Assembly: GCA_032718475.1 (NCBI GenBank)
Contig: JAUCBJ010006993.1
Location: 1 to 59,939 of the forward strand
Direction: 5' to 3'
DNA from: Nemertoderma westbladi
Lineage: Eukaryota > Animalia > Xenacoelomorpha
DNA length: 59,939 nucleotides
Part shown: in pieces, positions 7,701-31,552 of the stretch
Layout of the letters: each line of letters opens with the position of its first letter
Numbering within the stretch: position 1 is the stretch's first letter
Notes under the pieces: model-generated
Told to the model about the DNA's origin: nothing
The model's database searches: none
The model's input: the letters and a program-made list of their open reading frames with translations, nothing else
Made by a program: the position numbers and the translations under genes

Positions 7701-9767
7701 CTGCACTTCTTGCAACTCTAGTCTACTTTCCCTTACTGTGCCCTTGAATTGCTGAACAGTCTCCTGCATCTGCCCGAGCAGGAGATCCATCCCACGCCGT
7801 CTCTCGTCCACCCATTCGACCGCAGAAGCGGGAGTCGCCAACGTTGTAGCGGGCGGACGAGGGACAACGGGCGACAAATCATGAATATTTCGCTCGGGGT
7901 CCAGGACTTGAACTGTTTCCTGGGCAGCTCTACTGGGCACAGGTAGCTTAGTGCTGTGCAGAGGGAATTTAGAGGTAACTTCAGGGAGCACAGGTGTGTC
8001 TATCACCGAAGGGGTGATTTCAAGAACAGGCCTAATTATCTCAGGCTCATCTACTATAGTAGGGAGTCTTTCTATTTTAATTATTTGGTCTGTGGGTTCT
8101 GTACTACCTAAGTTGGTGCTATTTAGTTGCCTTCTAACAGCTGGAGGCAAATCAGGCAATTTCTGACGGTGGAATGTTCTTTTACGTCTGCTTAGACGAG
8201 ATCTATTTCCTTTGCCTTCAGTATCGGTGGTATCGCCTTCTTCAGATGATGTATATCCCTGTCTTTTGGGAGTAGATCGATTCATCATCTGCATATTACT
8301 AGCTGTTAACTGTTTATTTATGCAGTCTTGATTCTCTTGAAGATTTTCCAACTCCAGTTGGGTGATCTCTTCAGCCGCTCTCCGTTCTGCTTCCGCCACC
8401 GCTGCCGCTTTTGCCTCTGCCGCTGCCGCTTTTGCCTCTGCCGCTGCTTCTGCTGCTGACGCTTTTGCCCTTGCCTCGGCTTCTGCTGCTGCCGCTTTTT
8501 CCCTTGCCTCGGCTTCTGCTGCTGCCGCTTTTGCCTCTGCCGCTGCTTCTGCCAAGGTCGCTTTTCTTTCTGCCTCTGCCACTGCTGCTATCTTTCTGTC
8601 TTCTATACGTTTTTTCCTTACTTGTTCTTCCTTTTCTCTAGCGATGCGGAGTTGTTCATCGAATTTAGCTTGGTTCGCCGCTAACCTATCTACATCTATT
8701 GCATCCAACACATGCTGGGCTCCTTCACTATTAGGGCTAAGTCCATCTAGCCTTCTCCTCAACTCTTCATCACCTAAGAAACGTTGATAGTCTGACAAAT
8801 AGATGTCAATGGCATCCTTCTTATGCGGTTTCTCTGCCATCGCTTCACTTTCCACTTGGGAAAAAGTAGCGTCCGTTGATTCTCCATGGGTTGAGCGCTC
8901 CTCCAACTGAGCTTTCCACTGAGCTGCTCCTTGAACCTGGCGACTCACCCGTTGAAACCAAGTCTTTACGGCAACTTGCAACGACGTGTCTTGTCTTCTT
9001 TTAGAAGCCTCCTCAAAGGCTGATAAGATTAGCCTAATTCGCAGAATTCTTTCTCTAACTTGATAAAGCAGTTGTCCCTGCTCTTGAGGTCCTTGAGGTT
9101 GTTTAAACAGTTGTTTTTCTACTCGCTCCATAGAGCTGAAGAATCCTTGTGCGTATCCGGCTGCGGACCTCTTCCATACAGCTGGATCGATGGTTTCTTT
9201 GGCTACTCCCATCCGGTGTATGTCTTCCCAGGCAGCTTCTGATAAATCAAACGGGAGTCCGGGTCCGGGGAAGTTCCATTGCGACTCGACAATAGACTTC
9301 AGTTCTTCCCTCGTGTATCCCGCATAACTATCTCTAGTTGATCGCTGACTTCTCGCCCAATCGATCTGGTGTTCTTCCACCGCAATCAATAACCTAGTGA
9401 GTACGGCTGCAGGAAGGATGAGAAGGGGATCCGAATAAACCGCATCCGTCATCTCTGCTCCGCGCTCGGGTGTCAGCTCTACAGTATCCTCACTACTGGA
9501 GCTGTTGGGCCGCTGAGAAATAAGTTCTTGGCTCGCGGGTTGTTGCTGTTCTGCTGCTTCTTGGTCCCGCTTGACCTGAGCTCGAGTGCCTATGATAGAC
9601 CTACGATGTTGGACCAGCCTAGGTTCTGTTATTACTACTGGAGGGATGACCTTCCTCACAGTGGGAGGTGAACTGAACTTACGACTAGACGGTTCTATAT
9701 CTCTATCTGAGTCGCAGATAGTTACATCTAATAAACTGTCTGACAGGTTCTGCTTAGTATCAGACAT
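4734..9767 (-). CDS. Bel/Pao Gag-aspartic protease polyprotein with an RNase H C-terminal remnant; RT and integrase cores absent
   Basis: Bel Gag core (KFNGDEMKWLPF...LSNGEKLRFLIECLEG), triple Cys/His knuckles (CVLCDGPHRLNVC, CYNCLRRGHQRRTC, CAKCGAKHHILLH), protease ALLDSGS, then QWRYCPKTMNIADIASRG and YSSWNRL remnants. No YxDD or DDE core seen. Confidence 0.9.
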   Translation of the reverse strand: MSDTKQNLSDSLLDVTICDSDRDIEPSSRKFSSPPTVRKVIPPVVITEPRLVQHRRSIIGTRAQVKRDQEAAEQQQPASQELISQRPNSSSSEDTVELTPERGAEMTDAVYSDPLLILPAAVLTRLLIAVEEHQIDWARSQRSTRDSYAGYTREELKSIVESQWNFPGPGLPFDLSEAAWEDIHRMGVAKETIDPAVWKRSAAGYAQGFFSSMERVEKQLFKQPQGPQEQGQLLYQVRERILRIRLILSAFEEASKRRQDTSLQVAVKTWFQRVSRQVQGAAQWKAQLEERSTHGESTDATFSQVESEAMAEKPHKKDAIDIYLSDYQRFLGDEELRRRLDGLSPNSEGAQHVLDAIDVDRLAANQAKFDEQLRIAREKEEQVRKKRIEDRKIAAVAEAERKATLAEAAAEAKAAAAEAEAREKAAAAEAEARAKASAAEAAAEAKAAAAEAKAAAVAEAERRAAEEITQLELENLQENQDCINKQLTASNMQMMNRSTPKRQGYTSSEEGDTTDTEGKGNRSRLSRRKRTFHRQKLPDLPPAVRRQLNSTNLGSTEPTDQIIKIERLPTIVDEPEIIRPVLEITPSVIDTPVLPEVTSKFPLHSTKLPVPSRAAQETVQVLDPERNIHDLSPVVPRPPATTLATPASAVEWVDERRRGMDLLLGQMQETVQQFKGTVRESRLELQEVQQSIALERDKLVNTQKGIPPPSVTMCQPVRSEVSHAQGVEPTRIYIASEVETPIVNPIKGNYKPVDNDISSRLDNNPRNLYTDNSLFNNMMAQESFTRQMARTEARQAVKVGEIVKFNGDEMKWLPFNEYYKDNIQNSVLSNGEKLRFLIECLEGPPKSMALKFIGHPDGLRQVWDTLNIRYGNRTNIARYLYAKLMAPRKFLSSGIIEFSDEIQEICRQLDWLGKSHEYQNSMVVGALASTLPKGGVGTRWDKKVLYMMEQQQRDPTMADLMSFLDSEVKLQLIKQSREKTAESKVSEKPVSRRRVTPVCYTDDSESQTSQGEDSGKDTDRSYYVNKMPKDQVSKSKSRPNDRREPVQKTPPTSPKKIQVRKPEERTSVHHIAQVKVSNIKPKCVLCDGPHRLNVCDEFLRKSLEDRREVMWDKRLCYNCLRRGHQRRTCYSDARCAKCGAKHHILLHTEFERNSSSQVSESELHVQFSDVNDTDQSSEMEGFYTDEFSDQSSEMEGFYTDEFSDQNESCYLINTTAVYRALMHEKDTDSDLTLTTSDQQPSWKAPTSNIGIREFPVVQLRVHGPQKSYIVNALLDSGSTGTFIDKELAEVIFAGQPKFRTKLNMSGIMKVWNSTVAADYYIGELSTPQDKLGEYSIRSVKMVAIKNFATTQVEPYNWDEDDHVQQLNIPRFDTDYPGVQILIGQNAHEALETLEKRPTQPQPLQTYAVRTRVGWYLTGPSRRTLRERLLQDRVCQVSEWEDDTSEGDDPTEGTPHSSDNDNLNSNVDQWRYCPKTMNIADIASRGATPQELTDTPDRLGEPDFLSKEDEWPPHLTPAEIRQAKGAEKVKPKTRTGGSELFEPGIDLSVLHIARDDAVDLDLPTASGSFMKIRGSDWSSGTSDVSQGLLPLLQGATDHYSSWNRLCNAVIYFERCFYRHYSRTKRKPGIVFGMQRLNHPVGRLCLPEGNGGLSGNCGRQDSLPTTTSLILQTSRDSIT

Positions 9768-11076
9768 GTTTGTGTGTACAGTTGAATGTCTACTGCTATA
9801 TTACAGTCTGAGCAAGTCTAGTAATTCAGTATTAACTGCTAGCCTAGTAATTAATTACCGATACTGCTACTCAGTGCAGCGTGATATATATAATATATTA
9901 GAATACCGGTATGCTTATAGTATATATAACTATATAAGTTTTATTACAGACTAGGTTTATCACAGAATACCGGTATAATTTTAGCACAAATATATATAAA
10001 TATATAATAGGCCTATCGGGAATACCGGTATACAGCTTACAGTTTGTAGTATATATAATTCTGGACTAGAATTAATTACAAGTACCGGTATAATTTCAGC
10101 CTAAATTTACAGAAATAAAGATAATAGGCCTATCGTAAATACCGGTATATCAATTATTTTAAATTATTGAATTTCTGAATTTTAGGGTTACTTGGTTACT
10201 TTACTTACTTTATTACCGTTATTTGAGCAGTAGTCCAACTGATATTGAGACCTAATGGTTGTATGGTAGGCCTACTATTTATAAATCGTTAGATTTGATT
10301 TATATTTATATATACCCGTTTTAATGGGTTTTATCAATGTTTGAAATAAATGTTATTATTTCTGGGGGGTAATCACTACACAAAGCGGTACGCTTTCAGT
10401 GAAGTGTTACTTATAGGACACTAAAACAAATAATTCTAATTTACCTAAGTTACTTAATACTACAAATTACGTACAATTCAGGTGAGATTACAATCTCTAA
10501 ATAAACACAAAAATTTACAAAACACAAAATACGAATTTTTAGGGTAATTTTACAAGAAGTCTACAAACCAGCCTAACAAAGGGTTAGAAATCTGGTTATT
10601 ACAACGGACAGGGTTCTACGGTATTTGAAAATAATAAGTAGTAGTAAATACACTGCGTTGTCCAGATAGGAAAATACCACCGCCTGACGACCTATAGCCG
10701 TATCGCTATAGGTTCTACGTTATGTATCACGGAGTGTTCCTACCTAGAAGTTAATAGAGCTAATCGAACGTGCCTATCAACCACTTTACAACACAAATAT
10801 AATGCCTACACTAATTACTTTCGGAAAGCACTGTACACTAAACCCTAAATTAGGTACGAGTACTTGTACAACAGATAATCAGTAGTTAAATATACTTGAA
10901 CAGTTAAAAGAACCACGGCATCTGCTGGAGTAACCGGTGCACAAAATCACCAGTCTTTACCTACGCCAAGCAGCCCGTGTAGTACCGGGGTTAATTTAAC
11001 TATAACGGTATGTATAACAAACACAATTACTGTAGGAACAAACTTGGGGAATGAATGTTGCGAATAATCGCATAAA

Positions 11077-11655
11077 CTCTGAATAATAAATATTACGCTA
11101 CGCGTACAAACTACTCAAACAAAATGCAGACCAAATACCGACAGACTACTATCAAGCCTAAACAAACTACGGTATATGCAGACTCCGAAATGATTAGGTA
11201 GTATGCGTTCTAACTCAGTAGTACGACTTATTCTTTAGATGGGGGTTTACCTTACAGCATTGGCTGCCCCTACTTCCTAACCGTTCTTTGTCGGACAAGG
11301 GCTCTACACACACTACAATCCGTTCAGACCTAATAACAGCCAGACAACTATCCAGCCTACAAATTATCTAAATAAATATTATACGCTACCTGTACAGACT
11401 ACACAAACAAAGTACAGACTAAACGATGGCAGACTACTCTCAAGCCTAAATAAACTACAGGACATGCAGACTCCGAAATGATTAGGTAGTATGCGTTCTA
11501 ACCCAGTAGTACGACTTATTCTTTAGATGGGGGTTTACCTTACAGCATTGGCTGCCCCTACTTCCTAACCGTTCTTTATCGGACAGGTGCTCTACACACA
11601 CTGTAATCCGTTCAGACTTAACAACAATCAGACAACAGCTCAGCCTACAAATTGT
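11077..11655 (-). repeat. About 290-bp tandem duplication in the leader of Bel copy A
   Basis: Two near-identical blocks (tgcagactccgaaatgattaggtagtatgcg...tacttcctaaccgttc) at about 11177 and 11465. Confidence 0.85.
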
Positions 11656-12008
11656 CTGTACAAACTGATCAGACTTACACGCCTTCTGTTCAATACTGGC
11701 CTACAAATAAATAAAACTGACAGAAATAAGTAAGCTCCAAAAGAAACAAGGGGTGTACAGTCCCTAATCTCTTAAACAGCCTACCGGTATACAACAATCA
11801 AGTCGAATAATACTAATGTACTTATACGGAAGTACCGGTTAGGACAGTTAGGCCTACGGACCTACAGAAGTACCGGTTCTGGCAGTTGGACCTACGGACC
11901 TACGGCAGTACCGGTTCTGGCAGTTGGGCCTACTGACCTACAGATGTACCGTTCAGGTTTACCGGTTGACCGGTACTTTCAACTTTATTGCTTACTGCAA
12001 TAAAGAAG

Positions 12009-15209: not shown

Positions 15210-16556
15210 TTAATCCCAAGTCTCACACACCATCCCCAAGTGGTGTTCAGTCACGTGGTTTACATCAACTAGTACATTATCAACGTCCACAGAACCATCC
15301 TCAACATCTTCGTCGTCACCAGAAGACGAATATTGAGGAAGAACAATGTGTTGTTTATCTGTATCCATGGTTACAGTTAGACTGGATGACAAAATATTTC
15401 GCAGCTGAGTGACGTCATCACACAACTCTTTCAGTAACTGACTGCGATTCCAAATATCTGAAATACCAATGACGTCATAGTCAAGGTTAACGTCCTCCCA
15501 TTGGTTATCTTTATTATTTCTAGAAAGATCGAAGGCCGTAGCTAATACTTCGTTACACACCCGGGTGTTCAACTCGAGAGGTCCGGGGTATTTAATGATC
15601 TCGACCAAGTCGTAAGGCAGAGAATCTGCGTGAATGTCTCGCTGATCCTGAGTGTTTGTGTCTCGAGTGAATATAGCAATCTGTGAGCAGTACCCTAGGT
15701 GTGAGTGCTGCTGGGGTGCTTCACCAACACCGTCATACATTACGGTGTAACCGTAAGTAACAGCCACACCAGCGCACCAGCGGTCGAACTCATCTCTCGT
15801 CCACTCAAACTTGTGGTCCCAATGCCTAAACCCGTCACCAAGAGACGGGAACAACACGTTAAACTCCCTATTGGGTGTCGTTATGACAACGACTTTGGGT
15901 CGCAGTTTGCCGAATACAGCTCGAGGGAACTCTACAAGTACCTCTGGTTCTAAATGTTCGATTAGTTCTATACAAGTAACCGCTTCCACATGCCTCAGTC
16001 TATAATCCGTGTCCGTAACACTGCCTGTATACAAACTTATATCCAACGCAACCTCCCTGACGTCGCGTGTAAGATAATCGTATGTCCCTGGTCGCAGACA
16101 CGCTACGTTGTTTGAAAGTAAACTAGAATCGATATCTACTCCCATAATGGCTCCAATGTAGGGTTCCGCTTTCAGACGGAATATAAACTTACATTCCGCA
16201 CAGCCAAAGTCGACAACAGTCTGCGGACGGAACCGTTTCAAAGTCGATATAACAAACATGTAACGTTGAATGTAAACGGGTGGATCGAATGAAAACCCTG
16301 GGATGTCCCCGATATCGCCGGTTGCATCGGGGTCAGCTGTTACACTCGGGTTCGATGAGTCCTCTGTTCCAGCAGCTATTAGTAAATCCTCTACGGTGTC
16401 CACCTCAGCGCTATTGAAGCTGTCCTCGGCGCTATTTGCGCTGTCCTCGGCGCTATTTAAGCTGTCCTCGGCGCTATTTAAGCTGTCCTCGGCGCTATTT
16501 AAGCTGTCTTCCACGCTATTCAGATTGTCCCCGGAGCAGGTTGCACCGGTAGACAT
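15210..16556 (-). CDS. HENMT1: Small RNA (piRNA) 3'-terminal 2'-O-methyltransferase HEN1, single ORF
   Basis: FDPPVYIQRY (FxPP motif), VVDFGCAEC (SAM motif I), IELIEHL, TPNREFN, FRHWDHKFEWTRDEF. First in-frame ATG is at 16556; an in-frame stop lies at 16623-16625. Confidence 0.95.
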   Translation of the reverse strand: MSTGATCSGDNLNSVEDSLNSAEDSLNSAEDSLNSAEDSANSAEDSFNSAEVDTVEDLLIAAGTEDSSNPSVTADPDATGDIGDIPGFSFDPPVYIQRYMFVISTLKRFRPQTVVDFGCAECKFIFRLKAEPYIGAIMGVDIDSSLLSNNVACLRPGTYDYLTRDVREVALDISLYTGSVTDTDYRLRHVEAVTCIELIEHLEPEVLVEFPRAVFGKLRPKVVVITTPNREFNVLFPSLGDGFRHWDHKFEWTRDEFDRWCAGVAVTYGYTVMYDGVGEAPQQHSHLGYCSQIAIFTRDTNTQDQRDIHADSLPYDLVEIIKYPGPLELNTRVCNEVLATAFDLSRNNKDNQWEDVNLDYDVIGISDIWNRSQLLKELCDDVTQLRNILSSSLTVTMDTDKQHIVLPQYSSSGDDEDVEDGSVDVDNVLVDVNHVTEHHLGMVCETWD

Positions 16557-16833
16557 ACTCTCTGCTCCTAAATATCCGTTTACCAACGGGATATTCGTAA
16601 ACTCATCCTCGTCCCTACTGTACTAAGAGGTCTGACAGCTGACTCAAGTACTAATCAATGTCTGAATGTACAGTATCCACTGTTCTTGACGTTGGTAAAT
16701 TCTATATGCTATTAACTAAAACTAGAGAACTAATTAAGTGCAGCAAAACTGCATAAAATACTATGAATGAAATAGGTACCGACCGGTACGTTATGGAGCG
16801 GGATGGTTTAGTTCAGATTTAAGGGCAGTAGTT

Positions 16834-17534
16834 TATGGCATACATTTAGTTTCAATATTCAATAATTTAATACGAGTGATATTATTGATCATTGTAAATG
16901 ATTTTTGCCATGCTGAATTATTTCGATTGATATTATTGGTTGTTTTAAATAAAGTTTTTCAACTTAATTATTTCGCTTGATATTATTGGTTGATTTAAAA
17001 CATTTTTGTCTGTTGAATTATTTTGCTTGATATTATTGCTCGATTTAAATAACTGTTGACTTATTTCAACCGATAATTATAGGTAGTTTTAAATGAGACA
17101 GTGAATTATTTCCACCTATAATTATTGGTCGTATTAAATGTAGCTATTAAAAGCAGCTGATCTCGTGATGATTAACTTCTCTGCTTATATACCATGCTTC
17201 ACTACCGTACCGGTACCACTGTGCACTATACAGCTGTACCAGAACTGCAGTATCTGAGTCAGCTGATCACATTTAAATCGACATATAATTATCGGTTGAA
17301 ATAAGTCAACTGTTATTTAAATCGAGCAATAATATCAAGCAAAATAATTCAACAGACAAAATGTTTTATTTAAATCAACCTATAATATTAAGCAAAATAA
17401 TGCAGTTTTGAAACATTATTTAAATTGAGCAATAATATCAATCGAAATAATTCAGCATGGCAAAAATCATTTAAAACGATCAATAATATCACTCGTATTA
17501 AATTATTGAATATTGATACCAAATGTATGCCATA
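16834..17534. mobile_element. Foldback/MITE-like element with long, internally repetitive inverted arms and a 6-bp TSD
   Basis: Termini TATGGCATACATTT...AAATGTATGCCATA, with GTAGTT at 16828-16833 and 17535-17540. Arms of about 260 bp are built of ~50-bp subrepeats. Confidence 0.85.
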
Positions 17535-17723
17535 GTAGTTGTGTGCAGCTATTCACTACTGCTTCAGCAGCCTAAACATAATACAGTATTACAAATAGGC
17601 CAAACTGCGATTTATTACATGATTGATTATTATGATTTCAATTGAATTTCCCGCTCATTGCCTCCACTGTTCAGAGATCCAACCAATAAATAATCTGACT
17701 AATACAGCAAACAGTACATTCTA

Positions 17724-19914
17724 TTAGGTCCGCTTAGAGAGACTAGTAGTAAGTAGTAACCACTCAGTTTGTTAGGTTCGCATAGCGAGACCTCTAGTAA
17801 GTAGTAACCACTCAGTTTGTTAGGTTCGCATAGCGAGACCTCTAGTAAGTAGTAACCACTCAGTTTGTTAGGTCCGCATAGCGAGACCTGTAGTATAGTA
17901 AGCAGTAACCACTCAGTTTGCTAGGTCAGCATAGCGAGACCTCTAGTAAGTAGTAACCACTCAGTTTGTTAGGTTCGCATAGCGAGACCTCTAGTAAGTA
18001 GTAACCACTCAGTTTGTTAGGTTCGCATAGCGAGACCTGTAGTATAGTAAGCAGTAACCACTCAGTTTGCTAGGTCAGCATAGCGAGACCTCTAGTAAGT
18101 AGTAACCACTCAGTTTGTTAGGTCCGCATAGCGAGACCTCTAGTAAGTAGTAACCACTCAGTTTGTTAGGTCCGCATAGCGAGACCTCTAGTAAGTAGTA
18201 ACCACTCAGTTTGTTAGGTTCGCATAGCGAGACCTCTAGTAAGTAGTAACCACTCAGTTTGTTAGGTTCGCATAGCGAGACCTCTAGTAAGTAGTAACCA
18301 CTCAGTTTGTTAGGTTCGCATAGCGAGACCTCTAGTAAGTAGTAACCACTCAGTTTGTTAGGTTCGCATAGCGAGACCTCTAGTAAGTAGTAACCACTCA
18401 GTTTGTTAGGTCCGCATAGCGAGACCTGTAGTATAGTAAGCAGTAACCACTCAGTTTGCTAGGTCAGCATAGCGAGACCTCTAGTAAGTAGTAACCACTC
18501 AGTTTGTTAGGTTCGCATAGCGAGACCTCTAGTAAGTAGTAACCACTCAGTTTGTTAGGTCCGCATAGCGAGACCTGTAGTATAGTAAGCAGTAACCACT
18601 CAGTTTGCTAGGTCAGCATAGCGAGACCTCTAGTAAGTAGTAACCACTCAGTTTGTTAGGTCCGCATAGCGAGACCTCTAGTAAGTAGTAACCACTCAGT
18701 TTGTTAGGTCCGCATAGCGAGACCTGTAGTAAGTAGTAACCACTCAGTTTGTTTGGTCCGCATAGCGAGACCTCTAGTAAGTAGTAACCACTCAGTTTGT
18801 TAGGTCCGCTTAGAGAGACCTCTACTAAGTAGTAACCACTCAGTTTGTTAGGTTTGCATAGCGAGACCTCTAGTAAGTAGTAACCACTCAGTTTGTTAGG
18901 TCCGCATAGCGAGACCTCTACTAAGTAGTAACCACTCAGTTTGTTAGGTTCGCATAGCGAGACCTCTAGTAAGTAGTAACCACTCAGTTTGTTAGGTTCG
19001 CATAGCGAGACCTCTAGTAAGTAGTAACCACTCAGTTTGTTAGGTCCGCACAGCGAGATCTCTAGTAAGTAGTAACCACTCAGTTTGTTAGGTCCGCATA
19101 GCGAGATCTCTAGTAAGTAGTAACCACTCAGTTTGTTAGGTCCGCATAGCGAGACCTCTAGTAAGTAGTAACCACTCAGTTTGTTAGGTCCGCATAGCGA
19201 GACCTGTAGTATAGTAAGCAGTAACCACTCAGTTTGCTAGGTCCGCATAGCGAGACCTCTAGTAAGTAGTAACCACTCAGTTTGTTAGGTTCGCATAGCG
19301 AGACCTCTAGTAAGTAGTAACCACTCAGTTTGTTAGGTCAGCATAGCGAGACCTCTAGTAAGTAGTAACCACTCAGTTTGTTAGGTCCGCATAGCGAGAC
19401 TTCTAGTAAGTAGTAACCACTCAGTTTGTTAGGTCCACATAGCGAGACCTGTAGTAAGTAGTAACCACTCAGTTTGTTATGTCCGCATAGCGAGACCTCT
19501 AGTAAGTAGTAACCACTCAGTTTGTTAGGTTTGCATAGCGAGACCTCTAGTAAGTAGTAACCACTCAGTTTGTTAGGTCCGCATAGCGAGACCTCTAGTA
19601 AGTAGTAACCACTCAGTTTGTTAGGTCCGCATAGCGAGACCTGTAGTAAGTAGTAACCACTCAGTTTGTTAGGTCCGCATAGCGAGATCTCTAGTAAGTA
19701 GTAACCACTCAGTTTGTTAGGTCCGCATAGCGAGACCTCTAGTAAGTAGTAACCACTCAGTTTGTTAGGTCCGCATAGCGAGACCTGTAGTAAGTAGTAA
19801 CCACTCAGTTTGTTTGGTCCGCATAGCGAGACCTCTAGTAAGTAGTAACCACTCAGTTTGTTAGGTCAGCATAGCGAGACCTCTAGTAAGTAGTAACCAC
19901 TCAGTTTGTTAGGT
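17724..19914. repeat. 48-bp minisatellite, about 45 units, with 53-bp variant units
   Basis: Unit GTTAGGT(C/T)CGCATAGCGAGACCTCTAGTAAGTAGTAACCACTCAGTTT; the variant carries CCTGTAGTATAGTAAGCAG. No unique spacers. Confidence 0.97.
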
Positions 19915-19922
19915 ATAGTTAC

Positions 19923-21097
19923 TGTAAAGGCTTTTGCGTAATTAGCCGGTTATTTTCCCCGTGAAGTACTCTGTAGTTGGTTTACCAGGCATAAAAGGGC
20001 CGTGTCCTTACTGTACTGGTGTTTTAGAGGACATAAAAGTAATTTCTTCTGTATGTGTACTTTAGCGGACATAATCCGCAATTCCATGACGCAAAAGCCG
20101 AAATACTCTTGGAACAGTGTAGTTACTAAGACGACAGCTAATAGCTGAGCTGTACACGTGGAGCCTCTGCACGGAGCCTTGGTTCTTTGTTCTGCTCAGC
20201 TCAAATGACGACATCTATCAGCTGTGTCCACGTCAGTTCGACCAATCAGAGATTTTCCCTTTGTGTAAAAGCTGTACAGCAGAATCCCATGATTCAGTAC
20301 TGACGTTTCCCCCACGCCTAGAACACCGGCCGGGGAATGTTTTCTGACATTAGAGCGTCTTTAATTATAAGATCATCAAACTGTTATCTTGGTCAACTTG
20401 GTTAAGTACACTTGCATTATTTACTGCTATTTACTGTGTTGTTAATTGTATCGTTCGTTTACATATTATTATTGGGAAGAATATTGATAACGATCCGAAA
20501 CCCCAATCTTCTTGATACACTAAGGTTAGAGAGACAGGTTACATATAACAATTTGCGACATACATTATCGTGGTTTGTAATGAGTTCAATGCTACTTAAT
20601 AGGCCCTACAAATGTCGGTTGTTATTCTCTTTATATATGATTAAAATCAGTGAATATCGGCAATTCAGTGTGCAATTGTGTGCAATAGTCTGTGTGTGCT
20701 TGACCGAGTAACAAAGCATTTCCTAAAGAATGCACTTTGGTGATCTATAAGACATACTGTTGTGTATAGTGTAAGTCATAGCTCTGTTTAAATAGATAGA
20801 GCGCCACGTCCTAAAGGAACTGCTAATATTTCCCGAAAGTGAATAATATTCGTCAGAGATTATATATTAACGATCAATCGAATAGTGCGGTAGGCCTGCA
20901 CCGCAATCAAATTAAAGCATCCAAATCCAGTCTCCCGGGTATATCCAGCGGGTGAATGGTCGCGCACAGACTGGCTTTGGCTAATGTTAGAATTATTATA
21001 GGTGTTCAATACTTGTCATAGGCTGGAGTAGATTTATAACCTAGAAGACATATAGATTTGGCGGGTTAAACTGCCAAAGGTCTTAAAAGCGCGAACA
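19923..21097 (+). repeat. 5' LTR of copy B
   Basis: TGTAAAGG...GCGCGAACA. Differences seen from the 3' LTR: 20277 C vs 30732 T and 21029 T vs 31484 C. CCAAT at about 20242 and TTAATTATAA at 20361. Confidence 0.97.
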
Positions 21098-21108
21098 ATA
21101 ACAGTTTG
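21098..21108 (+). promoter_or_regulatory. Non-tRNA primer-binding site of copy B (ATAACAGTTTG)
   Basis: Abuts the LTR end and is the exact reverse complement of CAAACTGTTAT at 20377-20387. Confidence 0.7.
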
Positions 21109-21449
21109 TTAAATTCTTGATTGCAGTGTAGGCAATAAATACAGTTTAATATTGTTCTGGTAAGAACAATAACAGTTTGTAGGATCTTGATTGCGGCGTA
21201 AGCGATCAAGACTAAGGTACCGGTCGACCGGTGACCAGTAGGCCTGACTGCCTGATCACCCGGACCGGTACTTACAACAGTACAGGTACAGCAGTACTAT
21301 TTCGATTGTGATATTGTATATTGTAGGCTGCTAGGGGATTAGGGATTGATCACCCCTCATTCCTTTGTATAGTTTATTTATATCTGTCAGTTTTATTTGC
21401 CTGTAAGTTAATATTGAGTAGAAGGCCGTGTAAGTCTGCTCAGATTGTT

Positions 21450-22028
21450 CAGATAATTGTAGGCTGGACTGTTGTCGGACTGTTGTTGGGTCTGAACGGA
21501 TTGCAGTGTGTGTAGAGTCTGTCCGATAAAGTGCCAGTTAGTAAGTTGGGGCATCCAGAGCTGTAAGGTCAACCCCCTCCTAAAGAATAAGTCGTACTAC
21601 CGTGTTAGAACGCATACTAACTAACCATTTCGGAATCTGCATATACTGTAGTTTATTTGGGCTTGATAGTAGTCTGCCAGCGTTTTAGCCTGTGTTTGTT
21701 TGTGTGGTCTGTTCAGGTACCGTAATTGTTATTACTCAGATATTTTGTAGGCTGGATTGTTGTCTAGCTATTATTAGGTCTGAAGAGATTGCTGCGTGTG
21801 TAGAGTTTGTCTGATAAAGTGCCAGTTAGTAAGTTGGGGCATCCAGAGCTGTAAGGTCAACCCCCTCCTAAAGAATAAGTCGTACTACCGTGTTAGAACG
21901 CATACTAACTAACCATTTTGGAATCTGCACATACTGTAGTTTATTTAGGCTTGATGGTAGTCTGCCAGCGTTTGGTTTGTATTTTGTTTGAGTATTCTGT
22001 ACGGGTAGCGTAATATTTATTATTCAGA
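21450..22028 (+). repeat. About 290-bp tandem duplication in the leader of copy B
   Basis: ttgtaggctgga...gataaagtgccagttagtaagttggggcatcc... occurs at about 21457 and 21745. Confidence 0.85.
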
Positions 22029-23344
22029 GTTTATGCGATTATTCGCAACATTCATGTCCCCAAGTTTATTCCTACAGTAATTGTGCTTGTTACACATACC
22101 GTTATAGTTAAATTAACCCCGGTACTACACGGGCTGCTTGGCGTAGGTAAAGACTGGTGACTTTGTGCTCCGGTCACTCCAGCAGATGCCGTGGTTCTTT
22201 TAACTGTTCAAGTATATTTAACTGCTGGTTATCTGTTTTTAATAAGTACTTGTACCTAATTTAGGGTTTGGTGTACAGTGCTTTCCGAAAGTAATTAGTG
22301 TGTAGGCAGTATATTTGTGTTGTAAAGTGGTTAATAGGCACGTTGGTTCTGGTAGACCGCGGTAATTAACTTCTAGGTAGGGACACTCCGTCATACATAA
22401 CGTAGTACCTATAGCGATACGGCTATAGGTCGTCAGACGGTGGTATTTTCCTATCTGGACAACACAGTGTATTTACTACTACTTATTATTTTCAAATACC
22501 GTAGTATCCTGTCCGTTGTAATAACCAGAAAATCTAACACTCTGTTAGACTGGTTTGTAGTTCCCTGTAAAATTACCCTAAAATTTCGTACGTAATATTT
22601 TGTTGTGTTTAGTTAGAGAATTAATCTCACCCGTATCGTAAGTAATTCGTAGATAAGTAACTTAGGAAGTAGAATTATTTGTTTTAGTGTCCAATAAGTA
22701 GCACTTCACTGAGAGCACACAGCTTTTGTGTAGTGATTAATTCCCAGAAATAATAACATCTATTTCAATATTGTAACAAAACCCCTCATACGGGTACATA
22801 TAAATCCACTAAATCTATTAATAAAATAGTAGGCCTGTTATACAACACTTAGGTCTTAATATCAGTTGGACTGCTGCTTAAATAACGGTAATAAAGTAAG
22901 TAAAGTAACCAAGTAACCCCTAACATTCAGAAATTCAATTATTTTAAAATAATTGACATACCGGTATTTACAATAAGCTTATTATATTTATTCTATAAAT
23001 TTAGGCTGAAATCATACTGGTATTCTGTAATTAATTCTAGTCTGTAATAATTATACTTATATATACTATAAGTGTCAGCTGTATACCGGTATTCACGATA
23101 GGCCTATTATATATTTATATATATTTGTGCTAAAATTATATACCGGTACTCTGTGACAAATCTAGTCTGTAATAATACTTATATATATACTATAAGCATA
23201 CCGGTATTCTAATATATTATATATATATCACGCTACACTGAGTAGCAGTATCGGTAATTAATTATTAGGCTAACAGTGATACTGAATTACTAGACTTGCT
23301 TTAACTGTATTTATAGCCGTAGGCATTCAACTGTGTAAACAAAC

Positions 23345-26300
23345 ATGTCAGACACAACCCAATCACTGTCGGATAGTCTCTTAGAAAGTGTTAGAATGAC
23401 TGTTAGACAGTGTCTTAAAAGGATCAGTGACCCAGATCCAAGTATAGAACATCCTAGATCCAAGTCTAAGTCACCTACTATTGTAAGAAAGGCCATCCCT
23501 ACAGTAGTAGTGTCAGACCCTAGGCTAGTAGAACACCGTAGGTCTATCATCGGCACTCGGGCCCAAGTCAAGTGGGATCAAGAAGCAGCTGTCAAACAGC
23601 AGCAACATCCTAGCCAAGAACCTAGTTTTCAGCGGCCCGATAGCTCCAGTAGTTCGGATACTGTTGAGCGGACGCCCGAACTCGGAGCGAAGATGGCGGA
23701 TACGGTTTATGATGAACGGCTAACCTATGAAGAATCAACCGACGCCACTTCTTCTCAAGTGGAAAGCGAAGTGGAAAGCGAAGTGGAAAGCGAATTAACA
23801 GCAGCAGAGAAGCCGCGAACTAGAGACGCCATTGACATCTATCTGTCAGACTATCAGCGATTCCTAGGAGACGAAGAGTTGAGGAGACGACTGTCTGGAC
23901 TTCGCCCTAATAGTGAAGGAACCAAGCTTGTGTTGGACGCAATCGATGCGGAAATGTTAGCTGCAAACCAAGCTAAATTTGATGAAAAACTCCGCCTCGC
24001 TAGAGTCCAAGAAGAACAAGTAAAGAAAAAACGGATAGAGGACCGAAAGGCAGCAGCAGTAGCAGTGGCAGTGGCAGAACTGAGAGCGTCTGAGGAGACT
24101 ACCCAACTGGAGTTGGAAAATCTGCAAGAGACGCAAGACTGCATAAATAAACAGTTAACTGCTAGTCAAATGCAGATGATGAGTCGATCTACTCCCAAAC
24201 GCCAAGGATACACATCATCGGAGGAAGGCAAGACCACCGATCCTGAAGGCGGAGGAAATAGATCTCGTCTAAGCAGGCGTAGAAAAACATCTCACCGTCA
24301 CAAATTGCCTGATTTGCCCCCAGCAGTTAGAAGACAACTAGCTAGCACAGACTTAGGTAGTACAGAACCCACAGACCAAATTATTAAGGTCAAAAGACTC
24401 CCTACTATAGTTGATGAGCCTGAAATAATTAGGCCTGTCGTTCCCAAAGCCACTCCTGTGCTAGAGACCCCTGTACTTCCAGAGCTTAACTCTAAATTCC
24501 CTTTACACAGTACTACACTGCCTGTACCCGGTAGAACAGTCCATGAGAAAATCCCTGTCCTGGACGCTGAGAGAGAAATCAAAGATTTGTCTCCCGTCGT
24601 CCCGCGTCGGCCCGCTACAATGTTGGCGACTCCCGCTTCGGCGGTCGAGTGGGTAGAGGAGGGACGGCGGGGGATGAATCTCCTGCTCGGACAGATGCAG
24701 GAGACTGTCCACCAACTCAAGGGAACATTAAGGGAAAGTAGGGTAGAATTGCAAGAAGTGCAGCCAAGCATCGCGCTAGAACGCGACAAATTAGTCAATA
24801 TACAAAAGGGTATACCAATACCCCCTGTAACTGTGTGTCAACCTGTTAGGTCTGAAGTATTACATGCGCAAGGTGTGGAGCCTACACGCATCTATACTGC
24901 TAGTGAAGTAGAAACTCCTATAGCAAACCCTATTAAGGGTGATTATAAACCTGTTGTTGATGATATTCCCTATAGACCTGATAATAATCCGGGAAATTTA
25001 TATACCGATAATTCGATATTAAATAACACGATGGCCCAAGAAAGCTTTACGCGTCAGATGGCTAGAACAGAAGCCCGCCAAGCGGTCAAAGTGGGAGAAA
25101 TCGTCAAATTCAATGGAGATGAGATGAAATGGTTACCTTTCAATGAATATTACAAAGATAGCATACTAGTACTATCTAATGGAGAGAAACTTAGATTCCT
25201 CATCAAGTGCTTGGAAGGACCTCCCAAGTTAATGGCGTTAAAGTTTATTGGACATCCAGATGGATTAAGACAAGTTTGGGATACATTAAACATCAGGTAT
25301 GGTAACAAGGATAACATAGCTAAGTATTTGTATGCAAAATTAGTAGCCCCCCGAAAGTTCCTTAGTAGCGGGATTATAGAGTTTTCCGATGAGATTCAGG
25401 AGATCTGTAGACAATTGGATTGGTTAGGTAAGTCTCAGGAATATCAGAGTTCCATGGTTATTGGAGCCGTAGTCTCTACTTTACCAAAGGGTGGAGTATG
25501 TACACGCTGGGACAAGAAAGTGTTGTATATGAATGAACAACAACAACGAGACCCTACCATGGCTGATCTCATGTCCTTCTTAGATAGTGAAGTAAAATTA
25601 CAACTCATAAAGCAGTCCAGAGAGAAAACATCGGAAAATAAGGTAAGTGAGAAACCCGTTTCTAGGAGAAGGGTAACACCAGTGTGTTATACTGACGACG
25701 GCGAAAGCCAAGCTTCTCAAGAAGAGGACAGCGGGAAAGACACAGTAAAATCTTACTATGACAACAAGACCTATAAAGACGTAAGTAAATATAAGTCTCG
25801 AACCAGTGACAGGAGAGAACAGGTAACAACAACTCCTCCTACGTCTCCTAAGAGAATTCACGGAAGAAAGCCCGAAGAAAGAACGAGAGTGCATAACGTT
25901 ACCCAAGGTAAAGTGAGTAACATCAAACCAAAATGTGCGCTGTGCGACGGGCCCCACCGTTTGAGTGTGTGTGCTGAATTCCTAAAGAAATCCCTGGTAG
26001 ACAGACGTGAAGTCATGTGGGATAAGCGGTTATGCTATAATTGCCTCAGACAAGGACACCAACGGCGAACCTGTTACTCTGATGTAAAGTGTGCAAATTG
26101 CGGTGCGAAACATCACATCTTGTTACACAGTGAATTCGAACGAAACAACCCGAGTCAGGTAAGTGAGCCTGAACTACATGTCCCATTCAGTGATATAAAT
26201 GACACTGATCAAGAATCTGAGATGGAAGGATTCTATACGGACGAATTCTCCGACGCCAACGAATCCTGTTACCTAATAAATACTGCAGTGTATCAAGCAC

Positions 26301-27364
26301 TTACGTATGAAAAGGACACCGACAATGAGTTCCCCCCAACTACCTTTGACAGACAACCATCTTGGAAACCTCCAACTTCCAACGTAGGAATCAGAGAATT
26401 TCCTGTGGTGCAGGTAAGAGTTCACGGTCCTAACAAAAGTTACATAGTGAACGCCCTCCTTGACTCCGGCAGCACAGGAACATTCATCGATCAAGAACTA
26501 GCCGAAGACATCTTTGCTGGACAACCCAAATTCCGAACTAAGTTGAATATGTCAGGAATTATGCAGGTGAAATCTACCATAACGGCAGATTACTATGTAG
26601 GTGTGTTGTCCACCCCCCAGGATAAATTAGGAGAACAAAGTATAAGGTCAGTAAAAATGGTGGCTATAAAGAACTTCGCTACTACCCAAGTAGAACCTTA
26701 TAACTGGGACGAGGACGAGAGCATCCAGCCACTTAAGATACCTCGATTCCACACAGATTATCCTGGAGTGCAAATACTCATCGGCCAAAACGCGCATGAG
26801 GCGCTAGAGACATTGGAGAAACGGCCTGCTCAACCACAGCCACTACAAACCTATGCAGTAAGAACTAGAGTAGGTTGGTACTTCACTGGCCCTTCCCGTA
26901 GAACTCTCAAAGAGAGATTACCTCAACAACAGGTATACCAAGTAAAGGAATGGGAAGTGGAGAGCAGTGAGGTGGACGAACTAACTGAGGGAACACCATA
27001 CTCCTCAGATAATGACGATATTAACTCCAATGTAGATCAATGGAGACATTGCCTTGGGACGATTAATCCAGCCGACATCGCTTCCAGAGGAGCAACTCCT
27101 CAAGAACTGATAGATACTCCAGGCTGGTTAGGTGGATCCGACTTCTTAAGTAAAGAAGAAGAAGAATGGCCTCCTCATCTTACCACGGCGGAGATTAGAC
27201 AGGCCAAGGGAGCGGAGAAAGTAACACAACAACTCAATCGCCCAGCTGGTCGTTTATGTTTACTGGAAAGAGATCGAAAACTGTCCGGAAACTATGGAAG
27301 GCAAGATACTCTTCCTACGACCACTTCCCTAATCCGACAAATATCTAGGGACTCCATAACGTAA
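23345..27364 (+). CDS. Bel/Pao Gag-aspartic protease polyprotein with an RNase H remnant; RT and integrase cores absent
   Basis: Paralogue of 4734..9767 with the triple zinc knuckle, ALLDSGS and QWRHCLGTINPADIASRGATPQELIDTPGWLGGSDFL. Confidence 0.92.
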   Translation: MSDTTQSLSDSLLESVRMTVRQCLKRISDPDPSIEHPRSKSKSPTIVRKAIPTVVVSDPRLVEHRRSIIGTRAQVKWDQEAAVKQQQHPSQEPSFQRPDSSSSSDTVERTPELGAKMADTVYDERLTYEESTDATSSQVESEVESEVESELTAAEKPRTRDAIDIYLSDYQRFLGDEELRRRLSGLRPNSEGTKLVLDAIDAEMLAANQAKFDEKLRLARVQEEQVKKKRIEDRKAAAVAVAVAELRASEETTQLELENLQETQDCINKQLTASQMQMMSRSTPKRQGYTSSEEGKTTDPEGGGNRSRLSRRRKTSHRHKLPDLPPAVRRQLASTDLGSTEPTDQIIKVKRLPTIVDEPEIIRPVVPKATPVLETPVLPELNSKFPLHSTTLPVPGRTVHEKIPVLDAEREIKDLSPVVPRRPATMLATPASAVEWVEEGRRGMNLLLGQMQETVHQLKGTLRESRVELQEVQPSIALERDKLVNIQKGIPIPPVTVCQPVRSEVLHAQGVEPTRIYTASEVETPIANPIKGDYKPVVDDIPYRPDNNPGNLYTDNSILNNTMAQESFTRQMARTEARQAVKVGEIVKFNGDEMKWLPFNEYYKDSILVLSNGEKLRFLIKCLEGPPKLMALKFIGHPDGLRQVWDTLNIRYGNKDNIAKYLYAKLVAPRKFLSSGIIEFSDEIQEICRQLDWLGKSQEYQSSMVIGAVVSTLPKGGVCTRWDKKVLYMNEQQQRDPTMADLMSFLDSEVKLQLIKQSREKTSENKVSEKPVSRRRVTPVCYTDDGESQASQEEDSGKDTVKSYYDNKTYKDVSKYKSRTSDRREQVTTTPPTSPKRIHGRKPEERTRVHNVTQGKVSNIKPKCALCDGPHRLSVCAEFLKKSLVDRREVMWDKRLCYNCLRQGHQRRTCYSDVKCANCGAKHHILLHSEFERNNPSQVSEPELHVPFSDINDTDQESEMEGFYTDEFSDANESCYLINTAVYQALTYEKDTDNEFPPTTFDRQPSWKPPTSNVGIREFPVVQVRVHGPNKSYIVNALLDSGSTGTFIDQELAEDIFAGQPKFRTKLNMSGIMQVKSTITADYYVGVLSTPQDKLGEQSIRSVKMVAIKNFATTQVEPYNWDEDESIQPLKIPRFHTDYPGVQILIGQNAHEALETLEKRPAQPQPLQTYAVRTRVGWYFTGPSRRTLKERLPQQQVYQVKEWEVESSEVDELTEGTPYSSDNDDINSNVDQWRHCLGTINPADIASRGATPQELIDTPGWLGGSDFLSKEEEEWPPHLTTAEIRQAKGAEKVTQQLNRPAGRLCLLERDRKLSGNYGRQDTLPTTTSLIRQISRDSIT

Positions 27365-27884
27365 TAACATAAGGAGTGGGCGTGTGACTATATCATTTTA
27401 TATTTGTTTTTATTTTATATTTATGTATGTATTATTATGTAATTTTATTATAATCGTTTTCTTTAATTTTATTCAGTATAATGTTATTTTAGTGATTATT
27501 TAGTAGATTAGTGCAATATATTAGTGTTTATTACGTACGTAATTACTTATAATATATATTTAGTGCGACGGCGAGAAATAATTATTTTTTCTCTTTCCTT
27601 ACTGTCCGTATCATATTATAAATACGTGACTACAGTAAGATGAAATGTCCGTACTTATTAAAGTACAATAAAGCCACTACTATATTCAAGTATTATTGGT
27701 AGGCAGAGTATTAGGAATGCAAAGTTCAGATCCTCGTGTCTCGGCTAAACCAAGCTCTGGGTAGACCTTGGAAACGACTTGCCTCTTCACACTGACATTG
27801 CTTCGTGCGATATTGCTCTCATACCATATATAATAATACATATAGTAGCGTGATGTCCCTCTAACAGTAGCGTGAAACGCAAAT

Positions 27885-28200
27885 AAATCTGTTAAACCTT
27901 TTGACCATCTGTAATTCTAGTCGATTAAGATATCGCGGCACCCACCGATATACTTGAAAGACAAATTCTAGAATCAGTGGTTAACGTCCCCAGACAAGTT
28001 CTGGAATAAATTGGTGCCCATCTCAAATATTAATTATTTAATATTTACAAATCTATAAATCAAAATCTGTAAAATTCAGATCCTTTAACAATTCTAGTCG
28101 ATTAAGATATCGTAGCACTTACCGATACTCTTAAAAGACAATTTTCATAGAATTAAGGATCCTATGTCCCCAGACCTGCTCTGGAATCAAATTGTGTCAA
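27885..28200 (+). repeat. About 180-bp imperfect direct repeat in the element 3' region (also in copy A at about 3900-4220)
   Basis: aaatctgt...aattctagtcgattaagatatcg...gtccccagac...ctggaat occurs twice. Confidence 0.75.
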
Positions 28201-29014
28201 TTGTACTATCAAATAATAAAATTTCAGGGAATAAATTTAAATTCATATTTTAATGAATTTAATAAATTGTCATTCTGTGCAATTTATAACATTCCCAAAA
28301 TCCCATTAATTAATAGATCACGGGAGCGGAGATTCATCCTATTAAGTGTGTTAGAGTGTGAGAATCTCCCATGTATGAGTCAATAGCCGATAAAATTTAT
28401 AAAATCATATATAAACGAGATATTGGACCATTAAAGAATTACTATTAAATAGCATCCCAGATCTGTATGCATTGGAATTACCCTAATTCTACCGCTAGCT
28501 TTCCATAATGTCACCATAGTAACACCCACACTAGAATTAGAAACAAGTTAAAAAGAACAATAGAAAGCTTACCCCATTGCATAGTAAGAAATAAATAGCG
28601 CACTGCTAGTATCCAAGGATACATAATAATAACGTGGCATTCTGGAAGGCACTGACTAACGGACAAATGGCCCGAGTGTGTGTAATTTGTGACAGTTGTG
28701 TGTGTGGAATTTGTGAGTTTATAGGCGAATGTTACTACTAAGGTGTGTTTACAGTAGCGAGTCGCAATTGTGAAAGTAACCCTAACCCTCCAGTAAGAAC
28801 CTGAAGTGTATCTAAGCCTTTGGGACGGACAGTGGAGTGACTCGTGCTAGTGTCGTTGTCGTTGTGTAGCTACACGTTGGCGGAAAACACAGCGGCGACG
28901 ATACATTTGCGCTGAGGCTCTTACACTGTCCGGGGGCTGATTGGGGTAGGCAGCGACGCTCGCTAGCCTAATTATAAGCTCATTATAATATTAATAAACT
29001 CATATATAGCAGAT

Positions 29015-29438
29015 ATAACTGAGTTGATAGAAGATGGTCTTGGTATCGGGGAGCGATATACTCTACCTTTACAAGTGTTTGTTGATAGCTTGATACGCTG
29101 CGACGCTAGTCCAATTACTACGAAGGACGATGGTCGTTATATCGAACCGACGATTTCCTAGAAGCAACTTACGCGTGAATTGGACTATGGAAAATTCACC
29201 GCTCGCTACACGCATCGTAATAGTACGTATATGGATTTCTTAACCATTGGCCATTCTATCGATTCACACGATACGGACTATGTCGAACATATATCCTACC
29301 CAGCGGAGTCGGAATGATAAACTGAAATTCGAATGCGAAAATTCTATTCGAAATCGACTCAAAAGAAAAGACATTAGAGAGACAAATGGACGCGGTAACT
29401 CTAACGTATATTTGGAATTCTTGATAGAAGCATTGTAA
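29015..29438 (+). pseudogene. Disrupted homologue of the copy A accessory ORF
   Basis: ATA replaces the ATG, then TELIEDGLGIGERYTLPLQVFVDSLIR. There is a TAG at 29159-29161 and a later frameshift into TQRSRNDK...ENSIRNRL. Confidence 0.75.
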
Positions 29439-30369
29439 CAACAAATAAATATCATCCGCGTTTCCCCTACCAGACGTGCGTCTTTGGTATTATTACGATA
29501 AATGCCCTAGACCCAACCAATAAACAGAAAGACATAAACATCCACGGAAACCGAAACTTGTTCGACATATCACCTACGCTCGCTCGACTCAGACGATCCT
29601 TGAGTAAACCTACGATCATAGTTCCGGAATACTCGGTCAGACCACCTCGTTCCTTGATTAGACCTCAGACTTTCGATTCTGATGGTATCCCGGATCCTCA
29701 CGAGCTGTATTCACTGTTCAAAGATCTAGTGCTACCCTAACAATTAATCGGTAACACTCCGGCAGCGAGCTCTAGCTAGCCGCCCATCTTACCTAGCCGT
29801 ATTGGGACGCGGACACCTAATATCACCATTCAACCGTTTGGTCGTCCCAGTTTAACGCGATACAACCCTTCATCAAGGTGAAGGAGAGCGTTGTACGAAA
29901 CGAGTTAAACGCTATTCTACAAAGATCAGAAAGGAAACCTGCGTTTGTTCAGATAAATGTAAGTTATAACAGCAAGTCCAAGCGGTAAACGAATTGGCTT
30001 ATCTCAGTTCGATTGGGAAATCTTGAATCTCTAAGAAGATATCGAGCTTAGACAACCCTATTCTCTGCGAGAGTTTTGGACGAGCGTGTCCAATGACAAG
30101 CGGAGGAAAATCAGCTCGAGGAGAAGCAGATCGAAATGGACGAGACACTGACCGTAACCCTAAACCTTCTGATGCAATGGTATTGCACCCTTCACCCAGG
30201 AGTTACAGCCCTCCTAGTAAAGTGGCTCGCCCTAAAGAGAAAAGGACTCTTGCTAGCCTCAAAAAGCTGCGTAAACGACGTCCGCGTAAGAAAGACTAAC
30301 TGTTTAGAGTATTTTTATATTTTAGAAACTGTGATTTGTTATATTTTATAGACTTAAATCCCATTTTCT

Positions 30370-30377
30370 GGGAGCGG
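30370..30377 (+). other. Short polypurine tract of copy B
   Basis: GGGAGCGG immediately precedes the TG of the 3' LTR. Confidence 0.6.
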
Positions 30378-31552
30378 TGTAAAGGCTTTTGCGTAATTAG
30401 CCGGTTATTTTCCCCGTGAAGTACTCTGTAGTTGGTTTACCAGGCATAAAAGGGCCGTGTCCTTACTGTACTGGTGTTTTAGAGGACATAAAAGTAATTT
30501 CTTCTGTATGTGTACTTTAGCGGACATAATCCGCAATTCCATGACGCAAAAGCCGAAATACTCTTGGAACAGTGTAGTTACTAAGACGACAGCTAATAGC
30601 TGAGCTGTACACGTGGAGCCTCTGCACGGAGCCTTGGTTCTTTGTTCTGCTCAGCTCAAATGACGACATCTATCAGCTGTGTCCACGTCAGTTCGACCAA
30701 TCAGAGATTTTCCCTTTGTGTAAAAGCTGTATAGCAGAATCCCATGATTCAGTACTGACGTTTCCCCCACGCCTAGAACACCGGCCGGGGAATGTTTTCT
30801 GACATTAGAGCGTCTTTAATTATAAGATCATCAAACTGTTATCTTGGTCAACTTGGTTAAGTACACTTGCATTATTTACTGCTATTTACTGTGTTGTTAA
30901 TTGTATCGTTCGTTTACATATTATTATTGGGAAGAATATTGATAACGATCCGAAACCCCAATCTTCTTGATACACTAAGGTTAGAGAGACAGGTTACATA
31001 TAACAATTTGCGACATACATTATCGTGGTTTGTAATGAGTTCAATGCTACTTAATAGGCCCTACAAATGTCGGTTGTTATTCTCTTTATATATGATTAAA
31101 ATCAGTGAATATCGGCAATTCAGTGTGCAATTGTGTGCAATAGTCTGTGTGTGCTTGACCGAGTAACAAAGCATTTCCTAAAGAATGCACTTTGGTGATC
31201 TATAAGACATACTGTTGTGTATAGTGTAAGTCATAGCTCTGTTTAAATAGATAGAGCGCCACGTCCTAAAGGAACTGCTAATATTTCCCGAAAGTGAATA
31301 ATATTCGTCAGAGATTATATATTAACGATCAATCGAATAGTGCGGTAGGCCTGCACCGCAATCAAATTAAAGCATCCAAATCCAGTCTCCCGGGTATATC
31401 CAGCGGGTGAATGGTCGCGCACAGACTGGCTTTGGCTAATGTTAGAATTATTATAGGTGTTCAATACTTGTCATAGGCTGGAGCAGATTTATAACCTAGA
31501 AGACATATAGATTTGGCGGGTTAAACTGCCAAAGGTCTTAAAAGCGCGAACA
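30378..31552 (+). repeat. 3' LTR of copy B
   Basis: Direct repeat of 19923..21097 at offset 10455. Confidence 0.97.

Follow-up and report, generated by a model that had tools for sequence, protein, structure and literature searches.

Two retrotransposon copies of one family, here named A and B, lie in the window (the whole stretch of 59,939 nucleotides that was analysed), and each carries, directly behind its 5' LTR, a short sequence that is perfectly complementary to a site inside the same LTR. Both are non-autonomous Bel/Pao (Belpaoviridae) elements without reverse transcriptase (RT), RNase H, and integrase. Judged from its sequence, the family likely primes minus-strand DNA with its own RNA by means of a primer internal to that RNA, a reading held with moderate confidence; that priming is self-derived in one version or another is put forward with considerably more assurance. 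The matched changes between the two copies, the absence of TGG, the variable post-LTR sequences, and the same signature in autonomous Bel/Pao elements all speak for the self-priming proposed in an earlier, sequence-only reading of this DNA, but the Tf1-like RNA start that went with that proposal is not supported.

The two copies and their paired sequences

Copy B occupies 19923-31552 on the plus strand and is flanked on both sides by GTTAC, a 5-bp target duplication. The elements are laid out as follows.

19918-19922: left target-site duplication of copy B, GTTAC; the same 5-mer stands at 31553-31557
19923-21097, plus strand: 5' LTR of copy B, 1175 bp, TG..CA
23339-27364, plus strand: Gag-protease ORF of copy B, 1341 aa from stop to stop
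30370-30377, plus strand: short purine-rich tract ahead of the 3' LTR of copy B, as read from the sequence
30378-31552, plus strand: 3' LTR of copy B
13235-12022, minus strand: 5' LTR of copy A, 1214 bp, TG..CA; the 3' LTR lies outside the window
4734-9800, minus strand: Gag-protease ORF of copy A, 1688 aa from stop to stop

The two LTRs of copy B are mismatched at only 2 of 1175 positions (99.8% identical), and this near-identity, the TG..CA ends, and the GTTAC duplication mark it as a recent insertion. An array of 48-bp units (17600-19914) stops at its left target duplication and is not resumed on the right. The internal regions of A and B are ~80-87% alike over most of their length, and the leader of both contains a 288-bp tandem duplication (21457-21973, plus strand; 11094-11664, minus strand). 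Downstream of the shared region of A, 730-1917 on the minus strand holds two in-frame ORFs of 208 and 186 aa with one stop between them and Cys-His knuckle-like motifs at their ends; they have no Pfam match and are absent from B.

Both Gag-protease ORFs encode a DUF1759 Gag above the curated cut-off, Cys-His knuckles of the Bel/Pao type, and an aspartic protease. Homology searching with the window proteins returned 45 matches, most of them with the Bel/Pao domains PF05380 and/or PF03564. When the ORFs were aligned with 77 long Bel/Pao proteins, the alignments skipped from about residue 650 to about residue 1190-1260 of the full-length relatives, a gap that spans the end of the protease to a motif past RNase H and represents the same loss in both copies; the end of the copy B ORF is a remnant of the Bel/Pao region that normally comes after RNase H. 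No integrase was matched anywhere in the window by the 77 Bel/Pao queries. The Pol with RT, RNase H, and integrase that characterises an autonomous Bel/Pao element is thus missing from A and B. In this they differ from canonical Belpaoviridae (Semotivirus), with which they share the DUF1759 Gag, the three-knuckle nucleocapsid region, the protease, TG..CA LTRs of 1.2 kb, and the 5-bp target duplication. The searches found neither a close protein relative nor an autonomous partner of the family, the best match reaching ~26% over aligned columns, and a 23-nt LTR motif had no match among the metagenome contigs. Contigs from four public sequencing runs stack deeply on the LTR, with a very high summed depth in two of them (X1 and X3), which is consistent with a high-copy family, although contig depth is no copy number.

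The sequences at issue are five.

20377-20387, plus strand: predicted self-primer site of copy B, complementary to the post-LTR 11-mer; the 3' LTR carries its copy at 30832-30842
21098-21108, plus strand: predicted primer-binding site of copy B, without TGG
12801-12789, minus strand: predicted self-primer site of copy A, 13 nt
12021-12009, minus strand: predicted primer-binding site of copy A, without TGG
20361-20371, plus strand: TTAATTATAAG, the same in A and B, immediately 5' of the predicted primer site and an alternative TATA candidate

In copy B, ATAACAGTTTG (21098-21108) is exactly complementary to 20377-20387; in copy A, on the minus strand, ATAACGGATATAT (12021-12009) is exactly complementary to 12801-12789. 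Pairing starts in both at offset 0, the first base after the CA, with no extension across the LTR end, and in both the primer site ends 21 nt past the first T of TATAAG, with CTT next. Over the first 11 bases behind the LTR, A and B differ at positions 6, 8, 10, and 11, the LTR primer sites differ exactly at the partner positions (4/4 differences matched), and the final 12 nt of the LTR are the same in both copies. No TGG occurs from 20 nt before to ~40 nt after the LTR end of either copy, and neither possesses the canonical Bel/Pao priming site, which comprises 18 nt, matches a tRNA 3' end, and includes TGG. On all these points (the exact complements, their change in step, the missing tRNA site, the halt at the LTR boundary, and the common frame of upstream sequence and CTT) the sequence-only reading was borne out. 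Its placing of the site where homology between the copies begins proved loose, since continuous A/B homology begins only at 20422 and 12686, ~35 and 100 nt downstream of the primer site, though the position of the site does match.

Complements of such length are rare in shuffled sequence: upon dinucleotide shuffling, the LTR of B attained 11 nt in 21 of 20,000 trials and that of A attained 13 nt in 1 of 20,000. Contigs of run X5, possibly an RNA run, yielded two further post-LTR 13-mers, one of them three positions off that of A and the other sharing the first 8 nt of B, with the LTR end and the start of the A-type hairpin (described below) retained. At least four different post-LTR sequences thus occur in the family; the X5 variants are known from the post-LTR side alone, so that within-family co-variation rests on the two copies A and B.

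Predicted RNA start and folding

In the sequence-only reading, the RNA was expected to start at about 20377 as in Tf1, with the site marking the U3/R border. The LTRs support neither. The consensus motifs TATAWAWR (one mismatch allowed) and TCAKT were sought 27-33 nt apart from the LTR start to 60 nt past the start of the site, and one pair of a TATA-like motif with TCAGT was found per copy, within an otherwise diverged U3.

20264-20298, plus strand: predicted core promoter of B, TGTAAAAG and TTCAGT, start at 20296; 47 of 2000 shuffles hold such a pair
12929-12898, minus strand: predicted core promoter of A, TGTAAATA and TTCAGT, start at 12900; 59 of 2000 shuffles hold such a pair
20640-20645, plus strand: ATTAAA, putative polyadenylation signal ahead of a GT-rich stretch; the aligned sequence in A is ACTAAA (12470-12465), and AATAAA is absent from both LTRs

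These counts concern a pattern spotted by eye before counting, and the TATA of both copies has one mismatch. The predicted starts would put the primer site at +82 in B and +100 in A, and because the start is thus predicted 81-99 nt upstream of the site in both copies, the primer is probably internal to the RNA. Among eight autonomous relatives (introduced below) that were scanned likewise, a clean pair was found only in L062, where a perfect TATATAAA with CCAGT lies 93 nt upstream of the site; the other seven gave none.

Should the family follow Tf1 exactly, the RNA would begin at the first base of the site (~20375-20377), and an 11-13-nt 5' fragment would serve as primer. The perfect pairing that stops after 11-13 nt fits this, Tf1 having a duplex of 11 nt (PMC7175516, in excerpt), as does a segment able to form a duplex with the LTR end next to the site, resembling the U5 duplex of the Tf1 'pretzel'. 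Yet no TATA-like motif is present 20-60 nt upstream of the primer site in A or B, TATAAG stands only 9-11 nt ahead of it, the better promoter pattern lies 81-99 nt upstream, and in the relatives L004 and L062 the site falls more than 100 nt past a TATATAA; the exact Tf1 mode is accordingly judged unlikely.

The structural elements around the predicted primer-binding site are given below.

12005-11983, minus strand: 9-bp hairpin directly 3' of the predicted primer-binding site of A, z -3.5
21120-21136, plus strand: weak hairpin past the first predicted primer-binding site of B, z 0.1, not above chance on its own
21164-21211, plus strand: duplicate unit of B, consisting of GAACA, a second identical 11-mer (21169-21179), and a 10-bp hairpin (21185-21211)
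20957-20965, plus strand, in B, and 12150-12142, minus strand, in A: segment that could form a U5-IR-like duplex with the 9 nt at the LTR end

The weak hairpin of B has strong homologues in A and in the duplicate unit of B, the latter with a z of -4.7 and with bases that have changed yet are still paired. The second copy of the LTR end and 11-mer in B (21164-21179) had gone unmentioned in the earlier reading; the duplicate matches the first unit over its first 17/17 nt, with hairpins that have diverged from each other. Contig joints show that one of the two units of B is skipped in other members of the family. An Rfam search of 19900-23400 gave no match.

The U5-IR-like segment is conserved and lies ~130 nt upstream of the LTR end; an equally stable duplex arose in 16 of 300 shuffles for B and 5 of 300 for A, and the duplex is present in the full-length fold of A and absent from that of B. 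Folded from its predicted start, A forms the primer duplex with a probability of ~0.86. The corresponding probability in B is 0 in unconstrained folds, and forcing the duplex costs 5-10 kcal/mol; full-length folds comprise 850-940 nt and are unreliable at such length. As modelled, the result for B would speak against a spontaneous primer duplex in that copy.

A further alternative takes TATAAG itself as the TATA box, so that the RNA would start ~8 nt past the site (20395) and the primer would come from the site copy in the 3' LTR of the same or a co-packaged RNA. TATAAG is identical in both copies and correctly spaced, 28-29 nt from a CA, but the match to an initiator is weak. A further short helix that extends into TAAG and would lengthen the pairing is marginal for the B duplicate unit (40/1000 shuffles) and not significant for A (189/1000) or the first unit of B (360/1000), where it is also outcompeted by the local hairpin; it was rejected as a longer pairing, and it is not needed for the conserved CTT, which is explained by the hairpin. 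A cut at the 3' LTR copy would moreover sever the 3' R from that RNA, and we know of no precedent for a primer taken from the 3' LTR copy. This route is considered improbable, slightly more so than the exact Tf1 mode.

Autonomous relatives

A profile built from 16 Bel/Pao polyproteins was run over a quarter of the metagenome collection, and the best 80 of 573 confirmed loci were taken. Among viral contigs, the window protein found no locus and the Bel/Pao profile one partial locus. A direct repeat flanks the ORF on both sides in 23 of 81 loci, and eight loci had an apparent LTR 3' end. One of them, L066, has a repeat that ends at TGA with a TGG-type site beyond it, and was therefore removed and labelled TGG-type; among the remaining seven, the ends of L071 and L008 were placed at CA by hand. 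Five of these seven relatives carry a self-complement of 10-15 nt that starts 0-3 nt past the LTR, without TGG, and the other two have TGG and no complement. The complement is contiguous in L003 and L062 (11 nt each) and arises only across a GT-AG junction within the LTR in L004 (15 nt), L071 (12 nt), and L008 (10 nt). Each was reached in 0-3 of 1000 shuffles, and the best partner of each self-type post-LTR sequence was its own LTR. L003 is the weakest case, its LTRs being only 74% alike and ending in TA. Six of 16 loci with an open LTR end gave a match of at least 11 nt, five of which were accepted; L065, L007, and a second match in L042 were judged to be chance, the junction scan being able to yield false matches.

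Labels were set before a tree of RT-integrase was built (FastTree, midpoint root; 63 rows, 47 of them unlabelled). On this tree, the ten self-type and six TGG-type loci lie on opposite sides of one branch and need a single state change, which no shuffle out of 500 achieved. When 18 unlabelled loci were scanned later, 15 of which belong to the self-type clade, five matches emerged (L056, L068, L080, L023, and L007), among which L023 is a duplicate of L022 and L007 is probably chance; none of nine other loci gave a match in that scan, and many contigs in both sets have no LTR. On Gag-protease trees, a long branch next to the self-type clade leads to the window proteins, and a placement on the TGG side was not rejected (p-AU of 0.485); the A/B family and the self-type clade may have a shared origin or may have converged.

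It is against this background that chance, or a functionless one-off inversion or template-switch copy, has to be weighed. Pseudo-boundaries in the real window attained 11 nt in 175 of 16,782 cases (1%), a rate inflated by the inverted repeats of this repeat-rich window, and the junction scan can mislead, as with L007 and L065. Coincidence would nevertheless have to account for two copies with the same position and four matched changes, and for a signature that recurs in distant relatives clustering on the tree; it is regarded as highly improbable.

The pairing might instead be a structural or circularising contact, the true primer being a host tRNA fragment or another small RNA. Ty1 is known to contain 5'-3' cyclisation sequences, and the primer duplex of B is unfavoured in its fold. 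Half-tRNA primers exist in Copia lineages (PMC6317226, in excerpt). Such a scheme would demand a separate host primer for each of at least four post-LTR sequences in the A/B family and for one more per relative; the complement starts within 0-3 nt of the LTR end, the very place at which a primer has to stop, and the TGG-type relatives are without it. We consider this reading unlikely, to about the same degree as the exact Tf1 mode, and self-priming from an internal site is preferred.

The form in which the primer is assembled across a splice junction is not applicable to copies A and B, as joining GT-AG junctions inside the two window LTRs gives no complement as long as 10 nt. Both LTRs retain a donor-like AAG|GT (20525, plus strand; 12584, minus strand), and an invariant 17-nt stretch ends in TCATAG (in B, with the donor at 20525, the putative acceptor lies at 21020-21021, plus strand). 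An intron of ~500 nt between the two would place the primer site ~210 nt from the LTR end, the distance in the relatives being 110-175 nt; the acceptor scored below threshold, and no such joint is among those listed from the run contigs.

Several minor observations concern the relatives. The post-LTR sequence begins with GT in L008, L042, L056, L062, L068, L070, and L080, such that the predicted primer would end in AC, and with ATAAC in the window copies and L071. The upstream LTR copy of L062 (1-326) has a splice-acceptor-like TTTCAG at the junction, and its downstream copy (6696-7103) shows the joined form, an apparent intron loss via reverse transcription or else a chimeric contig.

Proposed mechanism and comparison with known systems

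Under self-priming from an internal site, the RNA would begin at 20296 in B and 12900 in A, ~80-100 nt upstream of the site, and the LTR site would fold onto the predicted primer-binding site. A nuclease would then cut immediately 3' of the duplex, ahead of CTT; the cutter could, as in Tf1, be the RNase H of an RT, here provided by an autonomous partner. The 3' end so created, carried by a capped fragment of ~90-110 nt, would be extended into U5, and the remaining R would be left for strand transfer (~280 nt in B, provided that ATTAAA at 20640 is the polyadenylation signal). In retroelements generally, the primer-binding site is copied anew from the primer during plus-strand synthesis. In the A/B family, this step would couple both sequences: a change in the LTR site would pass to the binding site, so that matched changes are to be expected under self-priming and need not reflect four independent selective events. 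A broader and more tentative proposal is that a large Bel/Pao branch has swapped tRNA priming for an internal self-primer ~100 nt inside the RNA, many members needing an LTR intron to be spliced and A/B representing the intron-free form.

The closest parallel is Tf1, whose primer is the first 11 nt of its own RNA, released by an RNase H cut between bases 11 and 12 (PMC7175516, in excerpt), and in whose 'pretzel' a U5 duplex flanks the primer site (bioRxiv 2022.12.06.519325, in excerpt). Like A and B, the elements Tf1 and Tf2 of Schizosaccharomyces pombe, Tj1, Tosmo, and the Tf1/sushi group have no tRNA site (excerpts of PMC7175516 and PMC4600332), and in that group, too, the element's own LTR pairs with the ~11 nt that follow the 5' LTR, and a flanking U5 duplex is possible (excerpt of bioRxiv 2022.12.06.519325). 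The post-LTR sequences of A and B share the perfect complementarity to the own LTR that typifies Tf1. The Tf1 group nonetheless consists of Ty3/gypsy chromoviruses, and A and B, whose proteins are of the Bel/Pao type and do not include a chromovirus Pol, belong to another superfamily. The predicted primer lies 81-99 nt inside the RNA in A/B instead of at its first 11 nt; the central duplex is common to both systems, and the binding site is followed by a third long-range duplex in Tf1 and by a local hairpin in A/B. Bel/Pao relatives of A/B (L004, L071, and L008) further depart from Tf1 in having a primer built across a splice junction.

Self-priming has also been predicted for the TAR lineage of plant Ty1/copia elements (Houba, Osr-1) and the Tcn1 clade from a complement of at least 10 nt located 0-5 nt past the LTR (PMC6317226, in excerpt), a feature that both window copies share; TAR and Tcn1 are plant Copia or Gypsy rather than Bel/Pao, and the mode is a prediction only. 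Fungal GalEa, with a conserved hairpin, and Dictyostelium Skipper, with a polypyrimidine tract, have conserved structure in place of a tRNA site, and no LTR complement is reported in the excerpted portions of PMC5445492 and PMC5006619, in contrast to the perfect and co-varying complement of A/B. According to the ICTV profile, Belpaoviridae are tRNA-primed through an 18-nt site for tRNA-Arg or tRNA-Gly, and their replication is poorly understood (PMC8742986); A and B have no such site.

Within the excerpted sources, self-priming is described for Tf1/sushi elements and predicted for Tcn1 and plant Copia TAR (PMC6317226, PMC7175516, PMC4600332, PMC2864245, PMC3601003). Only in Tf1 has it been demonstrated; for related Gypsy elements and a single lineage of plant Copia it is a prediction. 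No account of self-priming in Bel/Pao was found in the full-text literature searched, and an older note on Suzu- or Sinbad-like elements is possible; the available parts of four Bel/Pao-related papers (PMC3118150, PMC554778, PMC6238403, and PMC2774666) contain no passage on a primer-binding site, tRNA, or priming. If the present reading is true, Bel/Pao would become the third superfamily with self-priming, and a primer made internally or by splicing would represent a novel route to a priming end. A splice-dependent primer would tie replication to host splicing, and the scheme would account for the failure of tRNA-based annotation to find the primer site in these elements.

No tRNA gene was found in the window, whose remainder holds several intronless host genes: a TRPM2-like channel with a NUDIX domain (51344-56161, plus strand, 1605 aa), ALG12 (36573-38078, minus strand), only 41-48% identical to its best matches across many animal groups, a methyltransferase (15210-16622, minus strand), and a small atypical kinase (33950-34678, minus strand). 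The intronless genes and the ALG12 identity point to an intron-poor animal host without a close relative in the database. Long inverted-repeat pairs at 16834-17534, 35241-36069, and 40349-44355 (265-434 bp, 90-92% alike) are probably non-autonomous DNA transposons.
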